Shown: one piece after another, positions 9,449 to 32,608 of the stretch
Layout of the letters: every line of letters begins with the position of its first letter
Position numbering within the stretch: the stretch's first letter is position 1
From: a virus
Lineage: Duplodnaviria > Heunggongvirae > Uroviricota > Caudoviricetes
Direction: 5' to 3' (one strand)
IMG/VR virus record: IMGVR_UViG_2909303794_000007
Length of the DNA stretch: 37,027 nt
Translations under genes and position numbers: made by a program
Notes under the pieces: model-generated
The model's input: only the letters and a program-made list of their open reading frames with translations
Databases searched by the model: none
Told to the model about the DNA's origin: nothing

Positions 9449-10809
9449 CGTCCACCTCCGGAGAACAGGCCACCATCACGCATCTGTGTCTGAATTTCAT
9501 CACGGGCACCCTTGCGGGCCATGTCATACACCGCCTTCAGAGCAGCCGGACCTATCTGCCCGTTCGTGCCGTCGTTGTTAATCACCACATGGTTATTCTG
9601 CTCAAACGTCCCGGACGCCTGCGACCGGCTGTCTGCCATGCTGCCCGGTGTACCGACATAACCGCCGGTGGCATAGCCGCGCATCAGCCGGTAAAGATTC
9701 CCCACGCCAATCCGGCTGGTTGCCTCCTTCGTGAAGACAAACTCACCACGGTGAACAATCCCCGCTGGCTCATATTTGCCGCCGGTTCCCGTAAATCCTC
9801 CGGTTGCAAAATGGAATTTCGCCGCAGCGGCCTGAATGGCTGTACCGCCTGACGCGGATGCTCCACCACTGGCAGCACCGCCAATGGCGCTGCCGATACT
9901 CCCGACAATCCCCACCATTGCCTGCTTAAGCAGAATTTCTGTCATCATGGACAGCACGGAACGGGTGAAGCTGCGCCAGTTCTGCTCACTGCCGGTCAGC
10001 ATCGCCGCCATATTTTGTGCAATACCATCAAAGGTCTGCGTGGCTGCACTTTTAACCTGCGACATACTGTCCGTGGCGCTCTCTTCCCACTCACTCCAGC
10101 CGGACTTCAGGCCTGCCATCCAGCTCCCGCGAAGCTGGTCTTCAGCCGCCCAGGTCTTTTTCTGCTCTGACATGACGTTATTCAGCGCCAGCGGATTATC
10201 GCCATACTGTTCCTTCAGGCGCTGTTCCGTGGCTTCCCGTTCTGCCTGCCGGTCAGTCAGCCCCCGGCTTTTCGCATCAATGGCGGCCCGTTTTGCCCGT
10301 TGCTGCTGTGCGAATTTATCCGCCTGCTGCGCCAGCGCGTTCAGGCGCTCCTGATACGTAACCTTGTCGCCAAGTGCAGCCAGCTGGCGTTTGTACTCCA
10401 GCGTCTCATCTTTATGCGCCAGCAGGGATTTCTCCTGTGCAGACAGCTGGCGACGTTGCGCCGCCTCCTCCAGTACCGCGAACTGACTCTCCGCCTTCCA
10501 CAAATCCCGGCGCTGCTGGCTGATTTTCTCATTCGCTCCGGCATGCTTCTCCAGCGTCCGGAGTTCTGCCTGAAGCGTCAGCAGGGCAGCATGAGCACTG
10601 TCTTCCTGACGATCGCCCGCAGACACCTTCACGCCGGACTGTTTCGGCTTTTTCAGCGTCGCTTCATAATCCTTTTTCGCCGCCGCCATCAGCGTGTTGT
10701 AATCCGCCTGCAGGATTTTCCCGTCTTTCAGTGCCTTGTTCAGTTCTTCCTGACGGGCGGTATATTTCTCCAGCGGCGTCTGCAGCCGTTTGTAAGCCTT
10801 CTGCGCCTC
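9445..10809 (-). pseudogene. H: Tape-measure protein H, 5'-truncated at the IS1 boundary (C-terminal ~455 codons remain)
   Basis: The frame is open from the IS1 end at 10809 to the stop at 9445 and matches the lambda H C-terminal half (...EAQKAYKRLQTPLEKYTARQEELNKALKDGKILQADYNTLMAAAKKDYEATLKK...GGLFSGGGR). The N-terminal half of H is absent. Confidence 0.9.
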
Positions 10810-10864
10810 GGTGATGCTGCCAACTTACTGATTTAGTGTATGATGGTGTTTTTGAGGTGCTCCA

Positions 10865-11140
10865 GTGGCTTCTGTTTCTATCAGCTGTCCCTCCTGTTCA
10901 GCTACTGACGGGGTGGTGCGTAACGGCAAAAGCACCGCCGGACATCAGCGCTATCTCTGCTCTCACTGCCGTAAAACATGGCAACTGCAGTTCACTTACA
11001 CCGCTTCTCAACCCGGTACGCACCAGAAAATCATTGATATGGCCATGAATGGCGTTGGATGCCGGGCAACAGCCCGCATTATGGGCGTTGGCCTCAACAC
11101 GATTTTACGTCACTTAAAAAACTCAGGCCGCAGTCGGTAA
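10865..11140 (+). CDS. insA: IS1 InsA
   Basis: 91 aa, [43 protein letters not shown]... Confidence 0.95.
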
Positions 11141-11562
11141 CCTCGCGCATACAGCCGGGCAGTGACGTCATCGTCTGCGCGGAAATGGACGAACAGTGGG
11201 GCTATGTCGGGGCTAAATCGTGCCAGCGCTGGCTGTTTTACGCGTATGACAGGCTCCGGAAGACGGTTGTTGCGCACGTATTCGGTGAACGCACGATGGC
11301 GACGCTGGGGCGTCTTATGAGCCTGCTGTCACCCTTTGACGTGGTGATATGGATGACGGATGGCTGGCCGCTGTATGAATCCCGCCTGAAGGGAAAGCTG
11401 CACGTAATCAGCAAGCGATATACGCAGCGAATTGAGCGGCATAACCTGAATCTGAGGCAGCACCTGGCACGGCTGGGACGGAAGTCGCTGTCGTTCTCAA
11501 AATCGGTGGAGCTGCATGACAAAGTCATCGGGCATTATCTGAACATAAAACACTATCAATAA
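11059..11562 (+). CDS. insB: IS1 InsB reading frame (expressed as InsAB' by programmed -1 frameshift)
   Basis: 167-aa ORF in the -1 frame relative to insA, ending ...[11 protein letters not shown]. Confidence 0.9.
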
Positions 11563-11578
11563 GTTGGAGTCATTACCT

Positions 11579-11803
11579 ATGTCATCAAAGAACAGAACCC
11601 GCAGAACAACAACCCGCAACATCCGATTTCCAAACCAGATAATTGAACAAATTAACATCGCTCTTGACCTGAAAGGTTCAGGTAATTTTTCAGCGTGGGT
11701 TATTGAAGCCTGCAGAAGAAGATTAATTAATGAAAAATATTCTCAATTTGTACCCAACAAAGACAAACACGACCAGAGCACCTGTTCAGACAGGTTTACT
11801 TAA
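11579..11803 (+). CDS. Small ribbon-helix-helix (CopG/Arc-like) DNA-binding protein (~74 aa, start MSSKNRTRR...)
   Basis: Predicted beta-strand RNIRFP, then helices NQIIEQINIAL and NFSAWVIEACRRRL, the typical RHH pattern. ATG is 1 nt downstream of the IS1 right end; the track ORF starting inside IS1 (MESLP...) is an artefact. Confidence 0.45.
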   Translation: MSSKNRTRRTTTRNIRFPNQIIEQINIALDLKGSGNFSAWVIEACRRRLINEKYSQFVPNKDKHDQSTCSDRFT

Positions 11804-11820
11804 ACGACTTATATATGACA

Positions 11821-11849
11821 CAAAAAGCGACCACTAAAGTCGCTTTTTC
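11821..11849. terminator. Bidirectional terminator between the convergent RHH and PerC-like genes
   Basis: aaaaagcgaccactaaagtcgcttttt: stem gcgac/gtcgc flanked by A- and T-runs. Confidence 0.5.
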
Positions 11850-11884
11850 TTATGGTAACAGGCAATAACTCTCTCAGATATTTT

Positions 11885-12199
11885 TTAGCATTTTTTTGAC
11901 CGCGCGTTTCCGGACGTATTCTGTTCTCCTGTCCCTTTATATCGTCGGAATACCCGCCGCTCTTCAAATCCCATTCCCAACTCAGAATGTAGTCTGTTGA
12001 CCGCTTGTTTTATTTCGGTCAGGTTCACCGGTGAAACCGGAGTCCGGCGCGCCTTACGCAAACACTCTGCTCGTTTCTGTGCCGCCACTTTTCTTTTCTG
12101 GTCATCACTTAGCTGTACCATCACTTTTGCCCATCGTTCAGCTGCTCTCCGGTACAGTCCTTTTTTCTCCAGACATTCTGCCACGTGATCATGTAGCAT
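11885..12199 (-). CDS. PerC-family transcriptional activator (Pch-like, 104 aa)
   Basis: Motif AECLEKKGLYRRAAERWAKVM resembles the PerC/Pch signature (LExKGLWRRAAxRW) as I remember it; the size matches PchA/B/C. Preceded by ~460 bp of AT-rich non-coding DNA. Confidence 0.55.
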   Translation of the reverse strand: MLHDHVAECLEKKGLYRRAAERWAKVMVQLSDDQKRKVAAQKRAECLRKARRTPVSPVNLTEIKQAVNRLHSELGMGFEERRVFRRYKGTGEQNTSGNARSKKC

Positions 12200-12664
12200 A
12201 AGTGACCTCCGATTATCTACAGACTGCCATCCTGAATTTACCTTCCCTTAATGAAATAACAATAAAAAACAAGCCACGCAAAAACAATAAAACAACACAC
12301 AAAAAAAACTAAATAATAAACAAAAATAATCACCTTATTTTATTATTTTTTGAGGGAGCAATTACTGAACAAAAAACGCTGACTATATACTCAAAACCAA
12401 ACAACTATTCTGCCAATCAGGTATCATGGCAACACACGGAATTACCGTGTTTTTGCCTTCTCTGCCCATACAATACGGGCATATACTTCATTCTCTATTG
12501 TAATATTTCTATCCATGTGCCCCACTCCATTTACCTGTAAATAATATTCAAAATATTTATCACAGAAATCGTTTTTGGCCATGAACTGAGCACACTATAA
12601 AGTCCGGAACTGACTCTTTGTTAAATTACCTTAACGTTACCAGTAACACCTTCATAACAAAACA

Positions 12665-13132
12665 TCACGGTATACACTGGGTACGGATATATTCCTGTGC
12701 TCCTTCCAGTTGCTTCTGCATTGCCATCAGCCGTTCTCTGAGGATGAAATAATCCCGTTCAGCGGCTTCTGCCAGTCGGGGGCCGGTTGCATTATCCACG
12801 CCGGAGGTGCCGGTGGCTTCACGCACGGTACCGGAGCAGGTGGCGTTGATCCGCAGGCGCTTACGACCAGCGGCAACATCAGCACGCAGAGTTTCATTTT
12901 CAGCTCTCGCATCGGCTAATTCCCTCGAGTATCTGGCATCAAGTGCAGCGACATCACGCTGGCGTATCTGCATATCAGTAATTGTCGCGTTCGCCAGCTC
13001 CAGCTCACTGGCTTTTTTATCGCGCTGCTCTTTGTAGATGATGGCGTGATCACGGTAATGATTCAGCCCCAGACTAAGCGCACCACAGGCCACCAGCAGG
13101 ACAATGATAACCACGCACAGAACACGGTTCAT
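12665..13132 (-). CDS. Rz: Rz i-spanin (start taken at MNRVLCVVIIVLLVACG...)
   Basis: N-terminal transmembrane helix then a coiled-coil-rich periplasmic region; last gene of the lysis cassette; GGTGGTG Shine-Dalgarno upstream of the ATG at 13132. The track ORF extends to 13189. Confidence 0.8.
   Translation of the reverse strand: MNRVLCVVIIVLLVACGALSLGLNHYRDHAIIYKEQRDKKASELELANATITDMQIRQRDVAALDARYSRELADARAENETLRADVAAGRKRLRINATCSGTVREATGTSGVDNATGPRLAEAAERDYFILRERLMAMQKQLEGAQEYIRTQCIP
12727..12912 (-). CDS. Rz1: Rz1 o-spanin lipoprotein embedded in Rz in another frame
   Basis: MKLCVLMLPLVVSACGS... lipobox followed by a proline-rich sequence (PPAPVPCVKPPAPPAWIMQPAP), wholly inside Rz. Confidence 0.8.
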   Translation of the reverse strand: MRELKMKLCVLMLPLVVSACGSTPPAPVPCVKPPAPPAWIMQPAPDWQKPLNGIISSSENG

Positions 13133-13467
13133 ATCACCACCAACGGATTGCCCAGACCAGAACAGCAATGGCCACAATACGAATGGCAAAAGCTGCCGCT
13201 CTTGTTAAATCCAGACTGGCTGGCGTCTCCACTTCAATGCCTTTCATAATGGACAACCTCAGAAAGAATCTTTTATACTTCCTCACAGGGAAAGTACCTC
13301 CCTACCCATAATTTCTCCCTTGCCTTACTCAAGGTCAGAAAACACAAAACCCCGCTTGCTGCCAACAAACGGGGTTTTTACTTTTATTCACTTAGGTTTT
13401 ACCAGTTTTCAGGATTTCGTGTTATCCACCCGCGTTGGCCAACGTCATTTTTCAGGAAAATATTCTG

Positions 13468-14001
13468 CTATCTGTCGATGTCCCAGCACGCCAGCGCGCT
13501 CTCCTGGTCACGCCGTGAGACCTGACCGTAGCAATTATTTGAACGGATACGGCAGTCTCTGCCACCGTCCTTAATCCACCAGCGAATCGCCTCACAGGCA
13601 CCTTTTCGATCGCCTGCATTAATTCGTTTATAAAACGTCGACGGGAAGCACTTACCGGGGCCAATGTTGTACGGACAGAATGACGCGATCCCCGCTTTCT
13701 GGGGTTCGGTCAGCGGCACCCGGATGTTTTTCTCCACCCATGCCAGCGCCTTGTCACGTTCGATGGCATTAACCCGGTCGCATTTTTCCTTTGACAGCTT
13801 CATGCCAGGAATAACAGGCTTACCATCCACCAGAATGGCACCACGGCAGATGGTCCAGATCCCCGCACCATCACGGTATGCCGTGGTGTGGTTACCTTCC
13901 TTTTCATCCAGAAACTGGTCGAGGATTTCAGGCGCAGAAGCACCTGCACCAATCAGCGCCAGAACGGCAGCCGACAGGCCGTATTTTATTTTTTCGTTCA
14001 T
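13468..14001 (-). CDS. R: SAR endolysin (lysozyme R, phage-21/933W type)
   Basis: 177 aa; N-terminal weakly hydrophobic Gly/Ala-rich SAR segment (LSAAVLALIGAGASAPEIL), then a lysozyme-like domain. Confidence 0.85.
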   Translation of the reverse strand: MNEKIKYGLSAAVLALIGAGASAPEILDQFLDEKEGNHTTAYRDGAGIWTICRGAILVDGKPVIPGMKLSKEKCDRVNAIERDKALAWVEKNIRVPLTEPQKAGIASFCPYNIGPGKCFPSTFYKRINAGDRKGACEAIRWWIKDGGRDCRIRSNNCYGQVSRRDQESALACWDIDR

Positions 14002-14118
14002 GGGGATTTATCGATTTCTAATCCCTTGATATGTTAGGTATATAATCAAACACTCATGGTCGCTCTCATAAACATATCCCTTGAGACGCAGCAGATTACA
14101 ACAAATGAAGCCATATAA

Positions 14119-14433
14119 ATGAACAGTAAAGAAAGTTTGCGCAGAAGATTTTTACAACTAATGACAGAAAACGTTAAATCAGAGTTACTTCTTCTGATGG
14201 CAGATAATAACGAAGCAACAAGCAGCATTCTTGCAGACCCTTACGGTAAGATCTCACATAAAACGCTGGATATTATTACCACAACATTAACACCGCTGAT
14301 GCTTCAACGGCTGAAACATAATATCAACGCATGGGTTAATGAAGAATTAAGTCCTCCCTGTTTATGGGATTCTCGTTACGCATGTCAGCAAAAAATGCGA
14401 ATTTTCAACTTACTATCACCAAAGCTCAGGTAG
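14119..14433 (+). CDS. Hypothetical protein (104 aa) encoded on the opposite strand inside an AT-rich insert between S and R
   Basis: Only sizeable ORF in the ~690-bp AT-rich block separating holin from endolysin; no recognisable family. Confidence 0.35.
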   Translation: MNSKESLRRRFLQLMTENVKSELLLLMADNNEATSSILADPYGKISHKTLDIITTTLTPLMLQRLKHNINAWVNEELSPPCLWDSRYACQQKMRIFNLLSPKLR

Positions 14434-14688
14434 CCATAAAATCCTGCCCTTCATGGCATACAGGATTTCAATGGAATCACAATGACCAACTCTTGCACAG
14501 CTGTATCCCTGACTCCCCGACAACTCAGATTTTCAGTATCTGCTGCTATCTAAAGAGAAAGCGCACAAATGCAAGGGCCTTTCATCACGTCCTGTTATTG
14601 ATTGCCTGTGACCTTTTCTTACCTCATGGAACGTTTTTTCAGTTAGAAATATTCATTTTACAACCAGTTCGTATTGTTTATTCATCGA

Positions 14689-14895
14689 CTACTCTCCCCG
14701 CGCCACCTTACGACGGTCCTCTCTGATTTTGAAATACAGGTTAGTCAGATACGTCAGCAGGCCAAACAGCAGACTCCCCAGCACACCTATCGCCACCCAC
14801 TGGGACGGAGAGACTTTGTCCAGCAGCTGCAGTAACCAGTATCCCGTCCCCACCGCTGACGTGGTGTATGACACACCCGTTGTGATTTTTTCCAT
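14689..14895 (-). CDS. S: Class II holin / pinholin (S21-like)
   Basis: 68 aa, [68 protein letters not shown], closely matches the phage 21 S pinholin; two transmembrane segments. Confidence 0.85.
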
Positions 14896-15150
14896 CTGAT
14901 GTATGTCTCCGTCACCGCCGACAGAAAATGAAAGTAAAGGAAAACAAAAAAGCCGCCAGTGTCACCCACTGACGGCCAACGCCGGGAGCCGTGATTATGG
15001 CATTCAGGCTCTGCTAAAAATGCCAGATAACATTCCGGCCTCCCCCGATTCAGGTTATAAATGACACAATATCTTGACAACATCCGTCACTGTCTGTCAG
15101 AAAATGTACTGCCATATAGAAGCAACATGTGAAGTACATCTATCCTTTTG

Positions 15151-15193
15151 AGCCAGCACCTCTCCACCGAAAGTCAGTGCTGGCTGTTTTTTT
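15151..15193 (+). terminator. Plus-strand rho-independent terminator hairpin (module 1)
   Basis: agccagcac...gtgctggct stem followed by T7. Confidence 0.5.
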
Positions 15194-15300
15194 CCTTAAT
15201 AAAGCATCTGTAACTGAAACAATCCGCATATTGATAATATATTGACAGGCATCATTGCTGTCTGTGAAAAATAAGTCTCTACAAACATATAAGGCCTTTT

Positions 15301-15342
15301 AGCCAGCGTCTTCTTTTTCAGGTCAGTCGCTGGCTTTTTTTA
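15301..15342 (+). terminator. Plus-strand rho-independent terminator hairpin (module 2), abutting the esterase stop codon
   Basis: agccagcg...cgctggct stem followed by T7. Confidence 0.5.
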
Positions 15343-17193
15343 TTATGCTGCCGGTGCATTTATCTCCAGCACCAGACTTTCTATCTCAACGCCATACGCT
15401 GCATTTTTTGTAACATCCGTCAGCGTCAGCGCATTCAGTCCCAGTGTCAGACTGTCTTTTATAACCTGGAATGCCGGGCCAGCCACTCCATTCAGTTTCG
15501 GAGTAACCGTGGCACTGCCGGCGGTGAACACCAGCTCCAGCGTCTGCCAGTCGTTACCGTAATCGCCGAACTCCCCCAGCTTCGTGTTTCCGGCTTTCCT
15601 GTGATGCATCAGATTCACTCTGCCGTCAGTGGTCTGAGTGAAGTACGACATCAGGAACGGATTACCGGTACCCGTCATCGCCACACCATCAGGAACGGGA
15701 GCATCCGTATACAGATAAATCCCCAGCCCGAACTGATTGTTGGTCAGTGCGCCTGACAGGCGGAACTTACAGGTCAGTCTGCCGCCCTGTGTCAGCAGGG
15801 TAATTGCGTCATCCACCGGATGCGTCAGGGACCAGGTTTTATTGCTCTGCTTGGTGATCTTAAATACACCATCTGACAACTGAATTCCGCCATCCTTAAT
15901 GCTCCAGCCCTGCGCAGCAGCCTCTCCGGCTGCCGGCAGCAGGGAGATTGTGCGAACCGACGTATCTGCAGACGGACCCGATGGCGTGTTGCCGCCGGGC
16001 GAGGGTTTGATTTCCGGTGCCTTACCACTGATGAAGGCTGAGGTGCGCCCGGCTGCGTTCAGAATAGCGGTTGCCAGACGATCCGGAATAATGCTCCTGC
16101 GCGCCCATGAACTGAAATGTGTCGGGCGGTTTGATGATACCTGGTTTCCATTCGTTCTCGATGCCGCACCGTAATATCCTGATGCCGGAATATCCGGATC
16201 TTCTGCCGGCGCGTTAGTGGCGGTATTGACGCCGTTACCGTCTGTCATGAAGGGCACAAAATAAACGCCCTCACTCTCCCTGTTTTTATACCCGCCGTAC
16301 ACGGTGTCGTACTGGGTAGCGTATGTATTTTTCCAGTAATACGTCGTGTCACCACAAATCCACGGCACATCTGCAGCACTGCCACCATGGCACTGCGCGT
16401 TAAACACGGAGAGGTCAGCACGAAACTGTGTCAGCATGGCTGTAAACAGCGCAGGTTGCTGTGCGTGGGTGGCGGCGCTCATGTCAAACTCTCCCTGCAT
16501 CCAGCACACCGCCAGCAACACATTTTTCGGGTTCTTCTGTAATGCAGCTTTAGTGCGCGCAATCAGGTCCTGATATAACGGTTTACCCACACCCCAGCGT
16601 GCCGAATCCTGGCTGGCCCCCGTGTCCGCACTGAATGTCCCCTCAGCGCCCTGGGTGAATGCAGAACCACCACGACAGCATGGTACCAGCAGGATCCCCG
16701 CGTTATTCGGGATATACGGAAGCAGTTTTTTGGCAATATGTAAGCCCTGGCCGACACAGCCGTACTGCCCTTTGCTCAGGTCTGCCTTCGGATGATTCAG
16801 CGTACTCATATCCTGCACATCATGCAGGCAGTGGTCGGCCGGAATAATATCGTTATATCTGCAGGCAGCCCCACCCGGCGTAACTGTACTGCGGCGCGCC
16901 AGCTGTTTAATGCGCGGATCCGGAGCATCGTATGAATCCGGAAGCGGAAGCCCTTCCCCGTAAGCCATTGCATTGGACTGCCCGGCCAGTACGATGACGT
17001 AGTACCAATCCGGCTCAGTTGCACCACTGACCACCACATCACCTTCTGCTGCAATCGCCTGCATCAGGGTATAAGGGGTTATGGCCACCGGACTACCAAA
17101 CGGCTGCCAGCCCTCTTTCAGTTTGTGTGTCAGCTTTTCCGCAAGGTCTGACGGCGACGCCGCCCTGACAACATCATAATGTTTAATCGACAT
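15343..17193 (-). CDS. nanS-p: Prophage sialate O-acetylesterase (NanS-p-like; DUF1737 N-domain plus SASA/NanS esterase domain plus C-terminal extension)
   Basis: 616 aa; YYVIVLAGQSNAMAYGEGLPLPD...CCRGGSAF...CWMQGEFD... matches E. coli NanS (YjhS) as I recall it. Sits where Stx phages carry this gene, downstream of the toxin locus. Confidence 0.8.
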   Translation of the reverse strand: MSIKHYDVVRAASPSDLAEKLTHKLKEGWQPFGSPVAITPYTLMQAIAAEGDVVVSGATEPDWYYVIVLAGQSNAMAYGEGLPLPDSYDAPDPRIKQLARRSTVTPGGAACRYNDIIPADHCLHDVQDMSTLNHPKADLSKGQYGCVGQGLHIAKKLLPYIPNNAGILLVPCCRGGSAFTQGAEGTFSADTGASQDSARWGVGKPLYQDLIARTKAALQKNPKNVLLAVCWMQGEFDMSAATHAQQPALFTAMLTQFRADLSVFNAQCHGGSAADVPWICGDTTYYWKNTYATQYDTVYGGYKNRESEGVYFVPFMTDGNGVNTATNAPAEDPDIPASGYYGAASRTNGNQVSSNRPTHFSSWARRSIIPDRLATAILNAAGRTSAFISGKAPEIKPSPGGNTPSGPSADTSVRTISLLPAAGEAAAQGWSIKDGGIQLSDGVFKITKQSNKTWSLTHPVDDAITLLTQGGRLTCKFRLSGALTNNQFGLGIYLYTDAPVPDGVAMTGTGNPFLMSYFTQTTDGRVNLMHHRKAGNTKLGEFGDYGNDWQTLELVFTAGSATVTPKLNGVAGPAFQVIKDSLTLGLNALTLTDVTKNAAYGVEIESLVLEINAPAA

Positions 17194-17507
17194 CGAATTT
17201 CTCCCGTGTACAGGAACAGAGTTAAAAAGCCGGAACCGGAATCAAATCACAGGATGACCATCTGCCAGTGGCTGGTCGTAAAAAAAAGGCCGCGCCATGC
17301 GCAGCCGGAAATAAAGGGATAACGATGATAGTTTGAGAAAAACAGAAATAACACTTTTGTGGCAAAGCATGGTGCCGGGTGCCTCCCGGTGAATTCAGTA
17401 CCAGCACCTGAATCCGCGATTATCCCATATACCTACTCGCTGATTGCCCCTCCGCACAGGGGGATTCACCATGCAGAAGTGTTTTTAATAAACAGCAAAC
17501 AAAAAAA

Positions 17508-18273: not shown

Positions 18274-18350
18274 TGGCGCGTTGTAGTGGAGTCGAACCAC
18301 TGACCGATTGCTTAGAAGGCAATTGCTCTGTCCGGCTGAGCTAACAACGC
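18274..18350 (-). tRNA. tRNA-Arg (anticodon UCU), phage argN/argO-like
   Basis: Reverse complement GCGTTGTTAGCTCAG...ATTGC-CTTCTAA-GCAAT...GGTTCGACTCC...ACAACGC-G-CCA: cloverleaf with anticodon loop CU-UCU-AA, T-arm GGTTCGACTCC and a 3' CCA. Confidence 0.85.
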
Positions 18351-18387
18351 AGAATACCGATAATGGACCGCCATCGGGGACCCGCCC

Positions 18388-19725
18388 CATAAGCGCTAAC
18401 TTAAGGGTTGAACCATCTGAAGAATGCGACGCCTCGGTGCCTCGTTAAGACGATGCCTCGCGTTCTTCAATTGCGTTTTGTAGGCTGTCAGGGATACTGT
18501 CCCACGAATGGCCACCTGTAAGCTCCAGATGACCATTTTTGTTATTCTCCACAACGAGTTAGTTCTTCTTTTCGGATCCGGCACTTCTGGGGGGGAAATC
18601 CAGCGATGGCTGGATTATGTCGTCAATTAAAAATGCGGCGAGTAGATTAGCAAATATCCACGCTTTCGCGAGTTCAGGTTCCTTTGCACGCAAAGCATCC
18701 AGGTGCAGCAAACTTTTGAGCCGCTTAAAAGCCAGTTCAATTTGCCATCGCAGACGGTAACAATCAGCCACTTGCTCTGCTGAATATTCATCTTCCGGTA
18801 ATGATGTTAGCAATAGCACATGGCCCGCTGCTTCCAGCGTTTCCGCCTGAACTACTCGTCCTTTTCGACGATTCTCGCTGAGCAGTCGGGTTTTACTGAT
18901 TAATGCTTTTTCGGGAGGAAGTGATACGGCAATGAGACGTGCCGGAAAGGGAGCTCCGGCTTTTTTATTACCTGAATTGCCTATCATTACAGTGGTTTCA
19001 CCGTTCTTACCGCAATCCAGCCCGCGCAGAAAACCCATCATGTCAAAGCGCATTCCTTCTGCAGTTAACCAGCGCAATCCTCGCCAGTGAACCCGGACGA
19101 TATAATCAGCTTCTCCAAAAGCAAGTGAGCGGATACATTCGGGACGCGAACCGAATCCCCGGTCAGCAATGCGTATCTCGTCTGCCGTTTGCGCAAATCG
19201 GTCCAGCCGTTCAGCGTCTCTGCTGTCGGTTAGCTCAAAATCAGTGAACTGACAGGTATGAGGATCATATCCCATATGTAGTCGCCATTCAGCGCTGCCG
19301 CCCCCGGGCGCACTGATTGCTGTTCCATCGACAAGACGCAATCTCTTTCCGCTTGTACAACCCGTAACTGCGGCGCGTACAGCAAGTGTTTGTGCGGCAA
19401 GTATGCCAAACCAGTCGGCGGCATTCCGCAGCCGCTTCAGGAGAGCCACGTCAGATAATGTTGCAACGTCATGGAGCTGAGCCCATGCAGTGACTTCACG
19501 TAATGACATCCCCCGGGGCCGTAAGCCAGCCCCAGACGTAGCAGAGTTGCAGCATCACGAATTTCGCGGCGGCGGGTTAGAGCCCCGGCATTACGTGCCG
19601 AAGTATCCAGTTCTTCGGGCTTACCAATATGGGCCAGAATTGCTGACCAGTTATCGTGAGAGTAATTCATCGGCACGTTAAATCATATCAGGCGTAATAC
19701 CACAACCCTTAAGTTAGCGCTTATG
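18388..19725 (-). mobile_element. IS186 (1338 bp) inserted into a GC-rich hairpin between the two phage tRNA genes
   Basis: Terminal inverted repeats cataagcgctaacttaagggttg (18388-18410) and caacccttaagttagcgcttatg (19703-19725), flanked by a direct repeat GGACCCGCCCC (~11 bp) at 18377-18387 and 19726-19736. Confidence 0.9.
18559..19676 (-). pseudogene. IS186 transposase (IS4 family) with a 1-bp frameshift near 19510-19514
   Basis: N-terminal ORF MNYSHDNWSAILAHIGKPEELDTSARNAG...GLAYGPGG and C-terminal ORF MSLREVTAWAQLHDV... are in different frames; one extra base in the G/C run would join them. Confidence 0.75.
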
Positions 19726-19798
19726 GGACCCGCCCCCGCACCAACAACCCTGTTATGGTGTCGTCTGCTCTTCCTGATAAGCTAATGGCGGTATGTGA

Positions 19799-19874
19799 TG
19801 GTGGCCCTTGCTGGATTTGAACCAGCGACCTGGCGATTATGAGTCGCTCGCTCTCACCACTGAGCTAAAGGGCC
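19799..19874 (-). tRNA. ileZ: tRNA with anticodon CAU, Ile2-like (phage ileZ-like)
   Basis: Reverse complement GGCCCTTTAGCTCAGTGGTGAGAGCGAGCGACTCATAATCGCCAGGTCGCTGGTTCAAATCCAGCAAGGGCCACCA closely resembles E. coli tRNA-Ile2 (ileX/ileY). Confidence 0.85.
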
Positions 19875-24123: not shown

Positions 24124-24194
24124 AGCCTGCTTCTCCTGTGTAAGTTCACAGAGATATTGCAATTGCCTCCGGATAAGTAAGGGGAGATTGCACT

Positions 24195-25283
24195 ATGCAA
24201 ATGCAGCATCTGATGGTTGGCTATCCTAAGTACTACCAAACGGCCGATTATGCGTTGAGGCTTTCAGTGATGGCTGATATAGCAACAATGAGAATGAAGG
24301 CTCTGCACTTCTGGGATAAACACGGTATTTCTGCAGCTTCTGAAGCCTTTGGCGTGTCCTGCCGCACGCTTTACTGGTGGCGTCAGTTACTGAACAAGGA
24401 AGGACCTGAGGGGCTAATCCCGCACAGTAAGGCACCTCTGGTGCGACGAAAAAAACACTGGCATCCCGATGTGCTGAAAGAGATTCGACGCCTCAGGACA
24501 GAGCTGCCGAACCTCGGTAAAGAGCAGATTTTTGTTCGCCTGAAGCCCTGGTGCGAACAGCGCTATCTGGCCTGTCCGAGTGTTTCCACCATCGGCAGAA
24601 TGATCGCTGCCGCACATGATAAAATGCGGATGATACCTGTGCGTCTGGGATCGCGGGGGAAGGCACTGCTTGTCAAAAAGCGGTCTGCCAAACCCCGCAG
24701 GCCAAAGCACTACCGCCCGGTAAAGACAGGTGAGCTCATTGGGATGGACGCCATTGAGCTCAGAATGGGCGAACTGCGTCGCTATGTCATCACCATGATC
24801 GACGAATGCAGCAATTACGCGCTGGCGCTGGCTGTGCCGTCACTCAACAGTGATATCGTCAATCACTTCTTCAGCCGCGCAGCCCGGTTGTTCCCGGTCG
24901 GTATCAGCCAGATAATCACAGATAACGGAAAAGAGTTCCTGGGAAACTTCGACAAAACGCTGCAGGAAGCCGCTATCAAACACCTCTGGACCTATCCCTA
25001 CACGCCAAAAATGAACGCTATCTGTGAACGTTTTAACCGGACGTTAAGAGAGCAGTTTATTGAATTTAATGAGATTTTACTCTTTGAAGATCTGGCGCTA
25101 TTTAACCAGAAGCTGGCGGAATATCTGGTGCTGTATAACAGCAAAAGACCCCACAAGGCGCTCGCACTAATGACGCCCGTGGAATATATTTTAAAAGAGA
25201 ATAAAAATTGCAATATGTGGTGGACCCATACATCTCCTTGCCTTTCGGCACGTAAGAGGCTAACCTACGTTTGTGAAGCATAG
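24195..25283 (+). CDS. DDE-type transposase/integrase (rve superfamily, N-terminal HTH; IS481-like single-ORF layout)
   Basis: 362 aa; N-terminal HTH region, central ...IITDNGKEF... and C-terminal ...YNSKRPHKAL... typical of the integrase core domain. The only plus-strand gene in a minus-strand block. IS ends not identified. Confidence 0.65.
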   Translation: MQMQHLMVGYPKYYQTADYALRLSVMADIATMRMKALHFWDKHGISAASEAFGVSCRTLYWWRQLLNKEGPEGLIPHSKAPLVRRKKHWHPDVLKEIRRLRTELPNLGKEQIFVRLKPWCEQRYLACPSVSTIGRMIAAAHDKMRMIPVRLGSRGKALLVKKRSAKPRRPKHYRPVKTGELIGMDAIELRMGELRRYVITMIDECSNYALALAVPSLNSDIVNHFFSRAARLFPVGISQIITDNGKEFLGNFDKTLQEAAIKHLWTYPYTPKMNAICERFNRTLREQFIEFNEILLFEDLALFNQKLAEYLVLYNSKRPHKALALMTPVEYILKENKNCNMWWTHTSPCLSARKRLTYVCEA

Positions 25284-25689
25284 ATTGGGCCTCAGATTAA
25301 TGTTAAGCGTCTTGCAGGACGCGTAATGTTAACTGGGGCTTTTCTCTGTCTGCCTTACGGTGGCATGCCCGAGGCAGACAGCCTCAAGCACCCGCAGCAA
25401 TTCTACTTAACTCTCGCTTTACCGCAAACCGTTTTTACCCGATATGGGAATTCCCATATCGTAATGAATTCAGTTCCCTAGTCGATCCATCAAAAACACA
25501 ACCAGGCAGTAAACGCCCACAACAGCAACAACAGCCAGCGCACCTTCCATTGCCAGTGATATATCATCCGACATATTCCCTCCTTTGGTGTTAATCCCGG
25601 CGAACGTTTTTACCCTCACCGACAAATAACATATACTAAAAAAGCGATAGCCATAGCAACGCCTGTAATTGCAAATGCTTCAGGCCAGT

Positions 25690-32552: not shown

Positions 32553-32608
32553 TTTCTGGTGACGTTTGGCGGTATCAGTTTTACTCCGTGACTGCTCTGC
32601 CGCCCTTT
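32553..32608 (+). ncRNA. dicF: DicF small RNA homologue (cell-division-inhibiting sRNA)
   Basis: tttctggtgacgtttggcggtatcagttttactccgtgactgctctgccgcccttttt matches DicF as I remember it (3' intrinsic terminator ggcgg...ccgcc-U5) and lies immediately upstream of dicB as in Qin. Confidence 0.6.

Follow-up and report, generated by a model that had tools for sequence, protein, structure and literature searches.

An IS1 copy without target-site duplication in place of the cos, head and tail-shaft genes of a tccP2-carrying prophage sequence

The IS1 element and its neighbouring genes

The window, i.e., the whole 37-kb stretch of DNA that was analysed (37,027 nucleotides), contained a single IS1 copy, with a truncated tape-measure gene and the tail-tip genes on its left side and a ylcI/ynfO-family gene, a regulator gene and the lysis genes on its right side. 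The features at and around the element were as follows:

3563–7042, minus strand: tail-tip gene J (Pfam)
7103–7774, minus strand: tail-tip gene I (Pfam)
7672–8415, minus strand: tail-tip gene K (Pfam)
8421–9119, minus strand: tail-tip gene L (Pfam)
9119–9448, minus strand: tail-tip gene M (Pfam)
9445–10809, minus strand: 3' remnant, 454 codons, of the lambda-H-type tape-measure gene H (Pfam Tape_meas_lam_C; TIGR01541, 6.5e-136)
10801–10809: left 9-bp flank of IS1, CTGCGCCTC, inside H
10810–11577, plus strand: complete IS1, 768 bp, IS1A-like, with canonical inverted repeats at both ends
10810–10832, plus strand: left inverted repeat (IRL), GGTGATGCTGCCAACTTACTGAT, abutting the truncated H (pattern search, 0 mismatches)
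10865–11140, plus strand: insA (Pfam Zn_ribbon_InsA, 1.3e-21; HTH_Tnp_IS1, 4.7e-31)
11059–11562, plus strand: insB' reading frame (Pfam DDE_Tnp_IS1, 2.9e-77)
11555–11577, minus strand: right inverted repeat (IRR), an imperfect reverse complement of IRL, abutting ylcI
11578–11586: right 9-bp flank of IS1, TATGTCATC, comprising 1 nt and the first 8 nt of ylcI
11579–11803, plus strand: ylcI/ynfO-family gene, 74 aa, DUF3950 (Pfam DUF3950, 1.3e-17)
11885–12199, minus strand: PerC/Pch-family regulator gene, 104 aa (Pfam PerC, 3.8e-44)
12665–13189, minus strand: Rz (Pfam Phage_lysis)
13468–14001, minus strand: lysozyme gene (Pfam Phage_lysozyme)
14689–14895, minus strand: holin gene (Pfam Phage_holin_2_1)

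A degenerate-pattern search of the window for IS1 inverted repeats returned two matches, vs. 0 expected by chance; these were the two ends of the element, both at 0 mismatches. Its length and ends were those of the IS1 family (approximately 768 bp, with repeats of approximately 23 bp, GGTGATGCTGCCAACTTACTGAT and GGTAATGACTCCAACTTATTGAT), and so was its coding content: the insA and insB' frames scored far above the Pfam cut-offs and overlapped at an A6C motif (TTAAAAAAC, at approximately 11114–11122), where a −1 frameshift joins them. Relatives were annotated with a 'programmed frameshift'. Compared with the IS1A-type copies at loci L001 and L005, 764 of the 768 positions were identical. A scan for promoters and terminators returned only the promoter-like site in the IRL of IS1 itself, and nothing informative at the junctions.

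A simple IS1 insertion is flanked by a target-site duplication of 9 bp (sometimes 8 bp). The original prediction had stated that the flanks of this copy are not such a direct repeat, and this was confirmed, as CTGCGCCTC and TATGTCATC were alike at only three of nine positions. In an intact relative the left flank runs on as TTCGGTATATTTC, and in intact relatives the right flank is preceded by GGGGCAACAT. In L001 and L005, the IS1 copies sharing the ends of this one were surrounded by perfect 9-bp duplications, and the window's other two IS elements were also accompanied by target duplications (12 bp for IS421, 6 bp for an IS481-family element). The mismatch of the flanks thus indicated that the copy is not a simple insertion, while its identity as IS1 was unaffected.

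On the left side, the H remnant aligned in tblastn without gaps and with 99.8% identity to residues 400–853 of an 853-aa tape-measure protein, and to these residues alone; the N-terminal 47% is therefore missing. The frame was open from 9445 to 10809, with an in-frame stop at 10825–10827 within IS1, and the first in-frame start remaining was an ATG at 10689. An exact look-up of the resulting 414-aa protein returned two metagenome contigs only, in both of which the morphogenesis region was otherwise complete and without IS1. The tail-tip genes J, I, K, L, and M were kept as intact reading frames (3563–9448), in a block colinear at 97% with related prophages L003 and L009. Both parts of what had been proposed for this side proved correct: the Pfam assignments agreed with a minus-strand tail operon J-I-K-L-M leading into H, and H was open up to the left end of IS1 without its N-terminal half, codons 1–399 being gone.

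On the right side, the start codon at 11579 lay one base past the end of IS1. Its gene was assigned to the ylcI/ynfO family with 63.8 bits for PF13132 (cut-off 25) and 34.5 bits for the NCBIfam model NF041551, YlcI_YnfO_N (cut-off 30), and an identical protein was encoded on at least 996 contigs. In L001, L002, L003, L008, and L009 this gene occupies the same place, with the lysis cassette on one side and cos/terS on the other, and is encoded on the opposite strand; in intact relatives approximately 400 bp separate it from terS, with the cos site in between. Judged by this position, the DUF3950 gene is native to the phage type of the window and not foreign. Since it is the phage's own gene at its normal place, the right breakpoint could be mapped to the base. 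Foreign cargo on this flank was considered and rejected: the order ylcI, PerC, Rz, lysozyme, holin is the native one, and the lysis cassette (12665–14895) was 99% identical to those of L002, L008, and L009. The earlier description of this flank as unrelated cargo therefore had to be abandoned; of the "RHH gene" proposed 1 nt from the IS1 end, the spacing was right and the label was replaced by DUF3950/YlcI-YnfO. A PDB sequence search with YlcI gave no relative with a solved structure. Its single-sequence AlphaFold model (pLDDT 57) contained helices at residues 19–30 and 37–57 after an unstructured N-terminus, and this low-confidence model would be compatible with an RHH-type fold in its helix-helix core only. 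A protein identical to the neighbouring PerC/Pch-family regulator was named 'PchABC family transcriptional regulator' in one source.

The block missing relative to intact prophages

Lambda follows the order int...cI/cro...Q...holin-lysozyme-Rz...[cos-terminase-head-tail]...H-M-L-K-I-J-lom-stf, and prophages of the tccP2/pch type additionally carry effector cargo at the tail-fibre end. The Pfam order along the window matched this arrangement and was colinear with L008 and L009 except for the deleted block; gene order identifies the window as a lambda-like prophage of the tccP2/pch-carrying type, which in relatives is seated between yccA and tRNA-Ser/hyaA. Open reading frames still present included an integrase, an 823-aa exonuclease-family early gene, cI/cro, Q, the lysis genes and M-L-K-I-J, together with the cargo genes tccP2, PerC/pch and a SASA esterase gene.

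The best colinear intact relative was L009, a prophage of E. coli 2012C-4227 located between yccA and tRNA-Ser. It was colinear with the window from tccP2 to int, with 96.8% identity in the left arm and 99.0% in the right arm, and it contained exactly 12,100 bp between the two breakpoints. This segment carries cos, terS, terL, W, portal, protease, D, E, FI, FII, Z, U, V, G, T and the 5' 1.2 kb of H. The same distance was approximately 12.1 kb in L002, 11.9 kb in L003 and 12.1 kb in L008, with the breakpoints on the same strand. Both flanks of the window were colinear, with order and orientation kept, with single prophages of E. coli strains 2012C-4227, O103:H2 PV16-126, 2013C-4991, and Z1322HEC0006. 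Comparison with intact relatives, a check suggested with the original prediction, thus placed the endpoints between H codons 399 and 400 and 1 nt before ylcI, with 11.9–12.1 kb between them in four prophages. The two flanks of IS1 derive from separate parts of one colinear ancestral sequence, as in a deletion product.

Within the 37-kb window, the deleted DNA of L003 and L008 had no blastn match, and of the 15 morphogenesis proteins of L003 only residues 400–853 of H were matched in tblastn. No terminase, portal, capsid, tube or G/T gene and no cos was present anywhere in the window, cosN included. The loss of the packaging, head and tail-shaft genes at IS1 that had been proposed from the sequence was in this way substantiated as an 11.9–12.1-kb morphogenesis block present in relatives and absent here. 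The loss of cos had not been mentioned before and forms part of the deleted segment. These absences were established for the window; the chromosomal flanks and the remaining genome lie outside it, so the 12 kb could persist elsewhere in the genome. The deletion also took the promoter region of ylcI and its native ribosome-binding site. Direct reading of the sequence showed that IRR brings a GGAG to a position 9 nt before the ATG of ylcI, so that the end of IS1 substitutes its own motif, at a workable spacing, for the native site.

Origin of the deletion

These comparisons establish the anatomy, both breakpoints to the base and which genes are missing; the order of events, a transposase-driven mechanism and the phenotype are inferred from the end product. 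We favour, with moderate confidence, an internal loss of approximately 12.1 kb by intramolecular transposition of IS1, leaving one intact IS1 in the scar. IS1 would first have inserted at one of the two present junctions; the AT-rich cos–ylcI interval would be the favoured site, because simple IS1 insertions occur there in other strains, such as the one with a duplication in L005. The IS1 transposase would then have joined an end of IS1 to a target 12.1 kb away on the same molecule (IS1-mediated adjacent deletion). Finally, the intervening DNA, with the ylcI promoter region, the block from cos to G/T (prohead protease gene included) and H codons 1–399, would have left as a circle without replication origin and been lost. 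IS1 would remain with one old and one new flank, which would account for the lack of a target duplication. Independent duplication-less IS1 copies were found in L004, L010, and L011, starting 4–141 nt from ylcI/ynfO and bordered on the other side by distant DNA, which in L011 is the major capsid gene.

In E. coli, the classical adjacent deletions mediated by IS1 were first described for the gal region. Like the junction in the window, they keep one IS and extend from the IS end to an unrelated nearby site, without a duplication. Deletions adjacent to an IS that keep one copy have been described as common in E. coli (PMC4300727); compared with the classical cases and those from evolution experiments, the window is known from its end product alone. 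IEE, which acts on IS1-family elements and excises the IS together with flanking DNA (PMC9943667), was considered but does not directly explain this junction: the IS is removed in that process and is retained here.

The adjacent deletion originally proposed therefore fits the junction, but the sequence fits recombination between two direct IS1 copies equally well. In that alternative, which we regard as possible though rather unlikely, two IS1 copies, inserted independently into H and immediately before ylcI and each flanked by a 9-bp duplication of its own, would have recombined through RecA, excising 12.1 kb and one IS1. The surviving copy would keep one half of each duplication, and the exact product would result: one IS1, unrelated 9-bp flanks and colinear arms. 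Since this product is the same as that of the one-step route, the window alone does not separate the two. The material for such an exchange is at hand, as E. coli is rich in IS1 (median, 14 matching places per genome), several independent IS1 insertions were found in the cos–ylcI interval and in the terminase or tape-measure genes of related prophages, and deletions extending from a newly inserted IS copy to one already present have been described (PMC4300727). The route nevertheless requires two direct IS1 copies within 12 kb and three events (two insertions and a recombination) vs. two (an insertion and a transposition), and on these grounds of parsimony the one-step deletion is favoured. 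A mosaic of two IS1 variants, as a sign of recombination between two copies, was not obvious, a weak test given that the four differences from the IS1A-type copies were uninformative.

Searches of 5,426 complete E. coli genomes, of the GTDB species representatives, of IMG/VR and of JGI metagenomes turned up neither an ancestral nor a sister genome carrying IS1 at just one junction. This leaves the order of events unsupported and, as neither single insertion was seen, counts against recombination between two copies. Exact 24/25-mers across each junction went unmatched in IMG/VR, in the representative genomes of GTDB and in JGI metagenomes, and megablast across the junctions gave no junction-spanning place in the complete E. 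coli set of 5,426 genomes. The exact J and TccP2 proteins were likewise not on record in the public collections searched. The source genome and its close relatives thus appear to lie outside these collections.

Recombination between IS1 copies in two lambdoid prophages of one chromosome, joining a tail arm to an early/lysis arm and deleting or inverting the chromosomal segment between them, appeared improbable. Such genomes do hold many related lambdoid prophages (for the right flank, as many as 15 places in one genome). The tail arm at 3942–10809 was closest to L003/L009-type tails (97–99.9%), and the lysis side of L002 and L008 was 99% identical to the window while their tails reached 75–78%. 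However, the natural prophage L009 has both arm types together, colinear with the window from tccP2 to int, and the outermost left end of the window (tccP2 and the tail fibre, 1–2772) matched the prophage type of the right arm, so that ordinary tail-module mosaicism explains the identities. A mis-join of the arms during assembly, through collapsed copies of IS1, was considered very improbable: a multi-copy 768-bp repeat is a classic place for it, and the junctions and the exact J and TccP2 were absent from the collections searched, but the window crosses IS421 (1.3 kb) and the IS481-family element (1.1 kb), each with its target duplication, which suggests a repeat-resolving assembly, a random mis-join is unlikely to unite arms of the same type in the right order and orientation, and the same architecture is real in the finished genomes of L011, L010, and L004.

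Related IS1 junctions and consequences for the prophage

One known counterpart of the junction in the window is the IS1-bounded deletion in L011, a Qin-type prophage of E. coli CEA106S. Its IS1 has the same orientation, lacks a duplication and places IRR 141 nt upstream of ynfO; the other flank is a 5'-truncated major capsid gene, and cos, terminase, portal and protease are lost. L011 represents an independent event in another prophage, unlike the window in having its distal endpoint in E rather than H, and its IS1 is split by an IS3-family element. DLP12, Qin and their IS1-truncated variants (L003–L005, L010) resemble the window in keeping the lysis cassette and ylcI/ynfO while few or none of the packaging and morphogenesis genes are left. 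Duplication-less IS1 copies lie 44 and 4 nt upstream of ylcI/ynfO in strains 720632 and QL57EC, with chromosomal genes (cusC, ydfJ) on the opposite side. Whereas the deletions of the DLP12 and Qin variants reach the chromosome, that of the window is internal, and the tail-tip genes, the tail fibre and the tccP2 end survive.

Four independent duplication-less IS1 copies, the window's included, were thus located 1, 4, 44, and 141 nt from the start codon of ylcI/ynfO. It is conceivable, though doubtful, that the junction is no random decay scar and that IS1 recurrently settles within the approximately 150 bp upstream of ylcI/ynfO at cos, mostly in one orientation, then removing the packaging side and always sparing ylcI. 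Six events (the window and five in the collection) had the orientation of the window vs. one with the opposite orientation, which was not significant, in a search that required the 5' end of ylcI to be present. A rough expectation from IS1 density indicated no clear enrichment at ylcI. A hot spot for IS1 targeting at the cos region, which is bent and bound by IHF, might explain such recurrence, as might selection for expression of YlcI/YnfO by read-through from IS1; in the latter case, the uncharacterised YlcI/YnfO would benefit the host.

As the head, tube and tape-measure genes are lost, the element would be able to make no capsid, tail tube or tape measure. The prediction that it cannot form particles by itself was thus supported by the genes missing relative to intact relatives. 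The deletion also explains why annotation yields a lysis cassette and a tail-tip operon without terminase, head and tube genes. Loss of cos should additionally close packaging in trans, since the terminase of a helper or co-resident phage should not package the element. Sp4 of E. coli O157:H7 Sakai is likewise a defective lambdoid prophage whose packaging function was damaged by an IS: ISEc8 simply interrupts nu1, the terminase small-subunit gene, and leaves cos and the head and tail genes in place. Packaged Sp4 DNA was still detected, and the terminase of the co-resident Sp14, acting on an identical cos, was most likely responsible (PMC2669165). In contrast to Sp4, the element in the window is without cos and the head and tail-shaft block, and this rescue route should be closed to it.

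The junction represents a routine, private case of the well-known IS-driven decay of prophages, its exact junctions being new to the collections searched. Virulence-associated cargo was kept, namely the type III effector gene tccP2, the PerC/Pch-family regulator gene and a SASA-family (sialate O-acetylesterase-type) carbohydrate esterase gene. The deletion predicts that the element carrying these genes is locked into the chromosome and that its mobilisation would require prior recombination with an intact relative.

The IS1 copy and its target site

A complete IS1, starting with GGTGATGCTGCCAACTTACTGAT and ending in the imperfect reverse complement ...ATCAATAAGTTGGAGTCATTACC, lies between the tail and lysis genes. 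The IS1 terminal repeat was found at exactly two sites in the 37-kb window by degenerate pattern search, with 0 expected by chance.

Features of the junction and the other insertion sequences
3563-7042, minus strand: tail-tip gene J (Pfam)
between J and M, minus strand: tail-tip genes I, K and L (Pfam)
9119-9448, minus strand: tail-tip gene M (Pfam)
9445-10809, minus strand: open remnant of the tape-measure gene H, ending at the last base before IS1
10810-11577: complete IS1, 768 bp
10865-11140: insA (Pfam)
11059-11562: insB' (Pfam)
11579 (start): ylcI/ynfO-family gene, 74 codons
11885-12199, minus strand: PerC/Pch-family regulator gene (Pfam), followed by Rz, lysozyme and holin
18389-19724 (18377-19736 with duplication): IS421-like element, IS4 family; transposase frame 18559-19509; 12-bp target duplication GGGACCCGCCCC
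24138-25232: IS481-family element; transposase 24195-25283; 6-bp target duplication TCTCCT

Pfam E-values for insA and insB' spanned 1e-21 to 3e-77. Their overlap contains the A6C frameshift motif. Only 4 of 768 positions differ from IS1A-type copies of other E. coli, so the element looks functional.

The 9 bases outside its two ends (CTGCGCCTC vs. TATGTCATC) are identical at just 3 positions and, as originally noted, form no direct repeat. Perfect 9-bp repeats surround IS1 copies that share these ends in two further genomes (GCCAACACG in L001 and GACGCAGGT in L005), and the two other insertion sequences of the window also have duplications. The absent duplication is thus a true peculiarity of this copy rather than a boundary error.

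Breakpoints and extent of the lost segment

The frame of the H remnant is closed by a stop codon at 10825-10827, six codons inside IS1. The remnant matches the C-terminal domain of lambda tape measures (Pfam 1.5e-21; TIGR01541 6.5e-136) and gave a gap-free alignment, 99.8% identical, with residues 400-853 of the tape-measure protein (853 residues in all) from L003, an intact relative. The first 399 codons (47%) are therefore absent, in line with the proposed loss of the N-terminal half. A gene call identical to the 414-aa H remnant was found on two metagenome contigs (L006 and L007; gene at 10001-11245), but their morphogenesis region is otherwise complete and has no IS1. A frameshift or a gene-calling choice probably splits the tape-measure gene there; as these contigs illustrate, the deletion is not identifiable from exact-protein look-up alone.

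The right flank had been described as unrelated cargo, a view that the comparison overturned. The gene starting one base past IS1 is a ylcI/ynfO-family member by both Pfam (DUF3950, 63.8 bits) and NCBIfam (NF041551, above cut-off), and its protein occurs identically on about a thousand contigs (at least 996). The gene order is also native, since all intact relatives examined have the lysis cassette, PerC, ylcI on the opposite strand, approximately 400 bp with a lambda-type cos, and terS. Positions 11578-13400 matched 574 records at ≥99% identity, the best matches covering the whole interval at 99.8-99.9%. Upstream of the start codon, the relatives read ...GGGGCAACAT/TATG and the window ...GTCATTACC/TATG; as they diverge exactly at TATG, the right breakpoint is precisely one base 5' of the ylcI ATG.

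The right end of IS1 (11560-11581) sets GGAG 9 nt upstream of this ATG, displacing the native GGGG-containing leader. Since the transposase frames and ylcI share their reading direction, IS1 read-through is a possible source of ylcI expression. Where ylcI and PerC converge, a hairpin at 11822-11852 (AAAAAGCGAC-CACTAAA-GTCGCTTTTT) with A-runs and T-runs on its sides resembles a bidirectional terminator; it was not picked up by a simple promoter/terminator scan.

The best relative overall was L009, the prophage between yccA and tRNA-Ser/hyaA of E. coli 2012C-4227, whose colinearity with the window begins at the start codon of tccP2 and runs through the whole of int (identity 96.8% for 4546-10809 and 99.0% for 11578-17206). 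Exactly 12,100 bp of L009 lie between the positions that correspond to the window's two IS1 borders, and the equivalent interval measures 11.9-12.1 kb in three other relatives. The segment contains cos, terS, terL, W, portal, the S49 prohead protease, D, E, FI, FII, Z, U, V, G, T and the first 1.2 kb of H. Of 15 L003 morphogenesis proteins searched against the window (tblastn), H was the only one with a match, limited to residues 400-853; blastn found nothing for the deleted segment as it stands in L003 or in L008, another intact relative, and lambda cosN was absent from the window at up to 3 mismatches. These results confirmed the anticipated loss of packaging, head and tail-shaft genes, and the loss extends further, to cos and the ylcI promoter region.

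Origin of the deletion

With 12.1 kb held between the breakpoints in colinear relatives, the IS1 junction marks an internal deletion, as originally proposed. A single IS1 without duplication, arms that stay colinear and the absence of 12.1 kb together match what would be expected of an IS-associated deletion. Intramolecular transposition into a nearby target is the classical IS1 'adjacent deletion'. Here, a single resident IS1 would have transposed into a target 12 kb off, deleting the DNA between. IS-adjacent deletions that keep one IS copy have been described as frequent in E. coli (PMC4300727). We lean towards this transposition because it needs fewer events than homologous recombination between two directly oriented IS1 copies, which is possible though rather unlikely. 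Both routes end in the identical sequence and the window alone separates neither, so the proposed adjacent deletion fits the architecture without being the uniquely determined mechanism. No genome with IS1 at just one of the two junctions was found in the collections searched.

A hybrid that arose when IS1 copies of two different prophages recombined is improbable: the tail module resembles L003/L009-type tails, and on the lysis side 99% identity is reached with prophages that match the window at only 75-78% in their tails, but L009 holds both modules in one natural prophage. Mis-assembly through IS1 is likewise improbable, given that two other IS elements are cleanly resolved and that a random mis-join is not expected to give correct order and orientation. 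IEE-promoted excision acts on IS1-family elements but removes the IS (PMC9943667), and is no direct explanation for a junction that retains it.

Parallel cases were sought in finished genomes as IS1 3' ends adjoining the 5' end of ylcI, whose presence was required.

IS1 copies upstream of ylcI/ynfO in other E. coli
QL57EC (L004, 8001-8772): 4 nt upstream; no duplication; other flank ydfJ
720632 (L010, 3333-4144): 44 nt upstream; no duplication; other flank cusC
Ec-RL2-1X (L005, 8001-8861): 93 nt upstream; duplication GACGCAGGT; simple insertion
CEA106S (L011, 2020-4241): 141 nt upstream; no duplication; other flank a 5'-truncated major capsid gene

These four are independent events in the same orientation as the window's IS1, and the internal loss in CEA106S is of the same kind. 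The three copies without duplication border DNA that is normally distant. The opposite orientation was seen in only one record. Since a ratio of six (the window plus five in the collection) to one falls short of significance and only places with ylcI could be retrieved, the pattern is kept as a lead rather than a finding; it may reflect an IS1 hot spot or merely the search design. The exact junction 24/25-mers had no match in IMG/VR, GTDB representative genomes or JGI metagenomes, and no alignment spanned the junction among 5,426 complete E. coli genomes. The junction is private and well defined, and the process that it exemplifies has long been known.

Retained genes and consequences for the prophage

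Retained open reading frames
integrase, 339 aa
exonuclease-family gene, 823 aa
cI-type repressor with S24 peptidase domain
Q, DNA methylase, holin, lysozyme and Rz
tail-tip genes and tail fibre
cargo: tccP2 (six EspF-type repeats), PerC/pch and SASA esterase

The window begins at the ATG of the TccP2/EspF-repeat type III effector gene (1-1035, plus strand; six 47-residue repeats). The exact TccP2 and exact 1159-aa J proteins were not on record in a collection of 15 billion proteins.

The prophage shows further decay in its two additional IS insertions and in a 1-nt deletion in lom (Ail/Lom; 2897-3495, minus strand), which leaves two overlapping frames where L008 has one gene of 600 nt. The IS421-like element lies downstream of Q, between tRNA-Arg(tct) (18274-18350) and a cat-anticodon tRNA (19799-19874). 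The IS481-family element (24132-25393 region) probably splits a hok/sok module, as it sits between a hokD-like region and an Rfam sok match (25227-25393, minus strand); an IS481-family transposase also occupies the equivalent site of L008, the O103:H2 prophage. Two Rfam matches above gathering score lie inside the prophage, distant from the IS1 junction: DicF RNA (32554-32605, plus strand; 76.7 bits) beside the repressor gene, on the side facing int, and STnc100 sRNA (17331-17503, minus strand; 101.5 bits) adjoining the esterase gene.

Because terminase, portal, protease, capsid, decoration, head-tail connectors, tube, chaperones and an intact tape measure are absent, the element's own genes would not yield any particle, which supports the original prediction on this point. 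In prophage Sp4 of E. coli O157 Sakai, an IS interrupts nu1 but cos is kept. Sp4 DNA was nevertheless detected in packaged form, and the enzyme responsible was most likely a second prophage's terminase, which would recognize a cos identical to its own (PMC2669165). Unlike Sp4, the window lacks cos, so packaging by a helper terminase should be closed to it. Mobilization of the element would require prior recombination with an intact relative.
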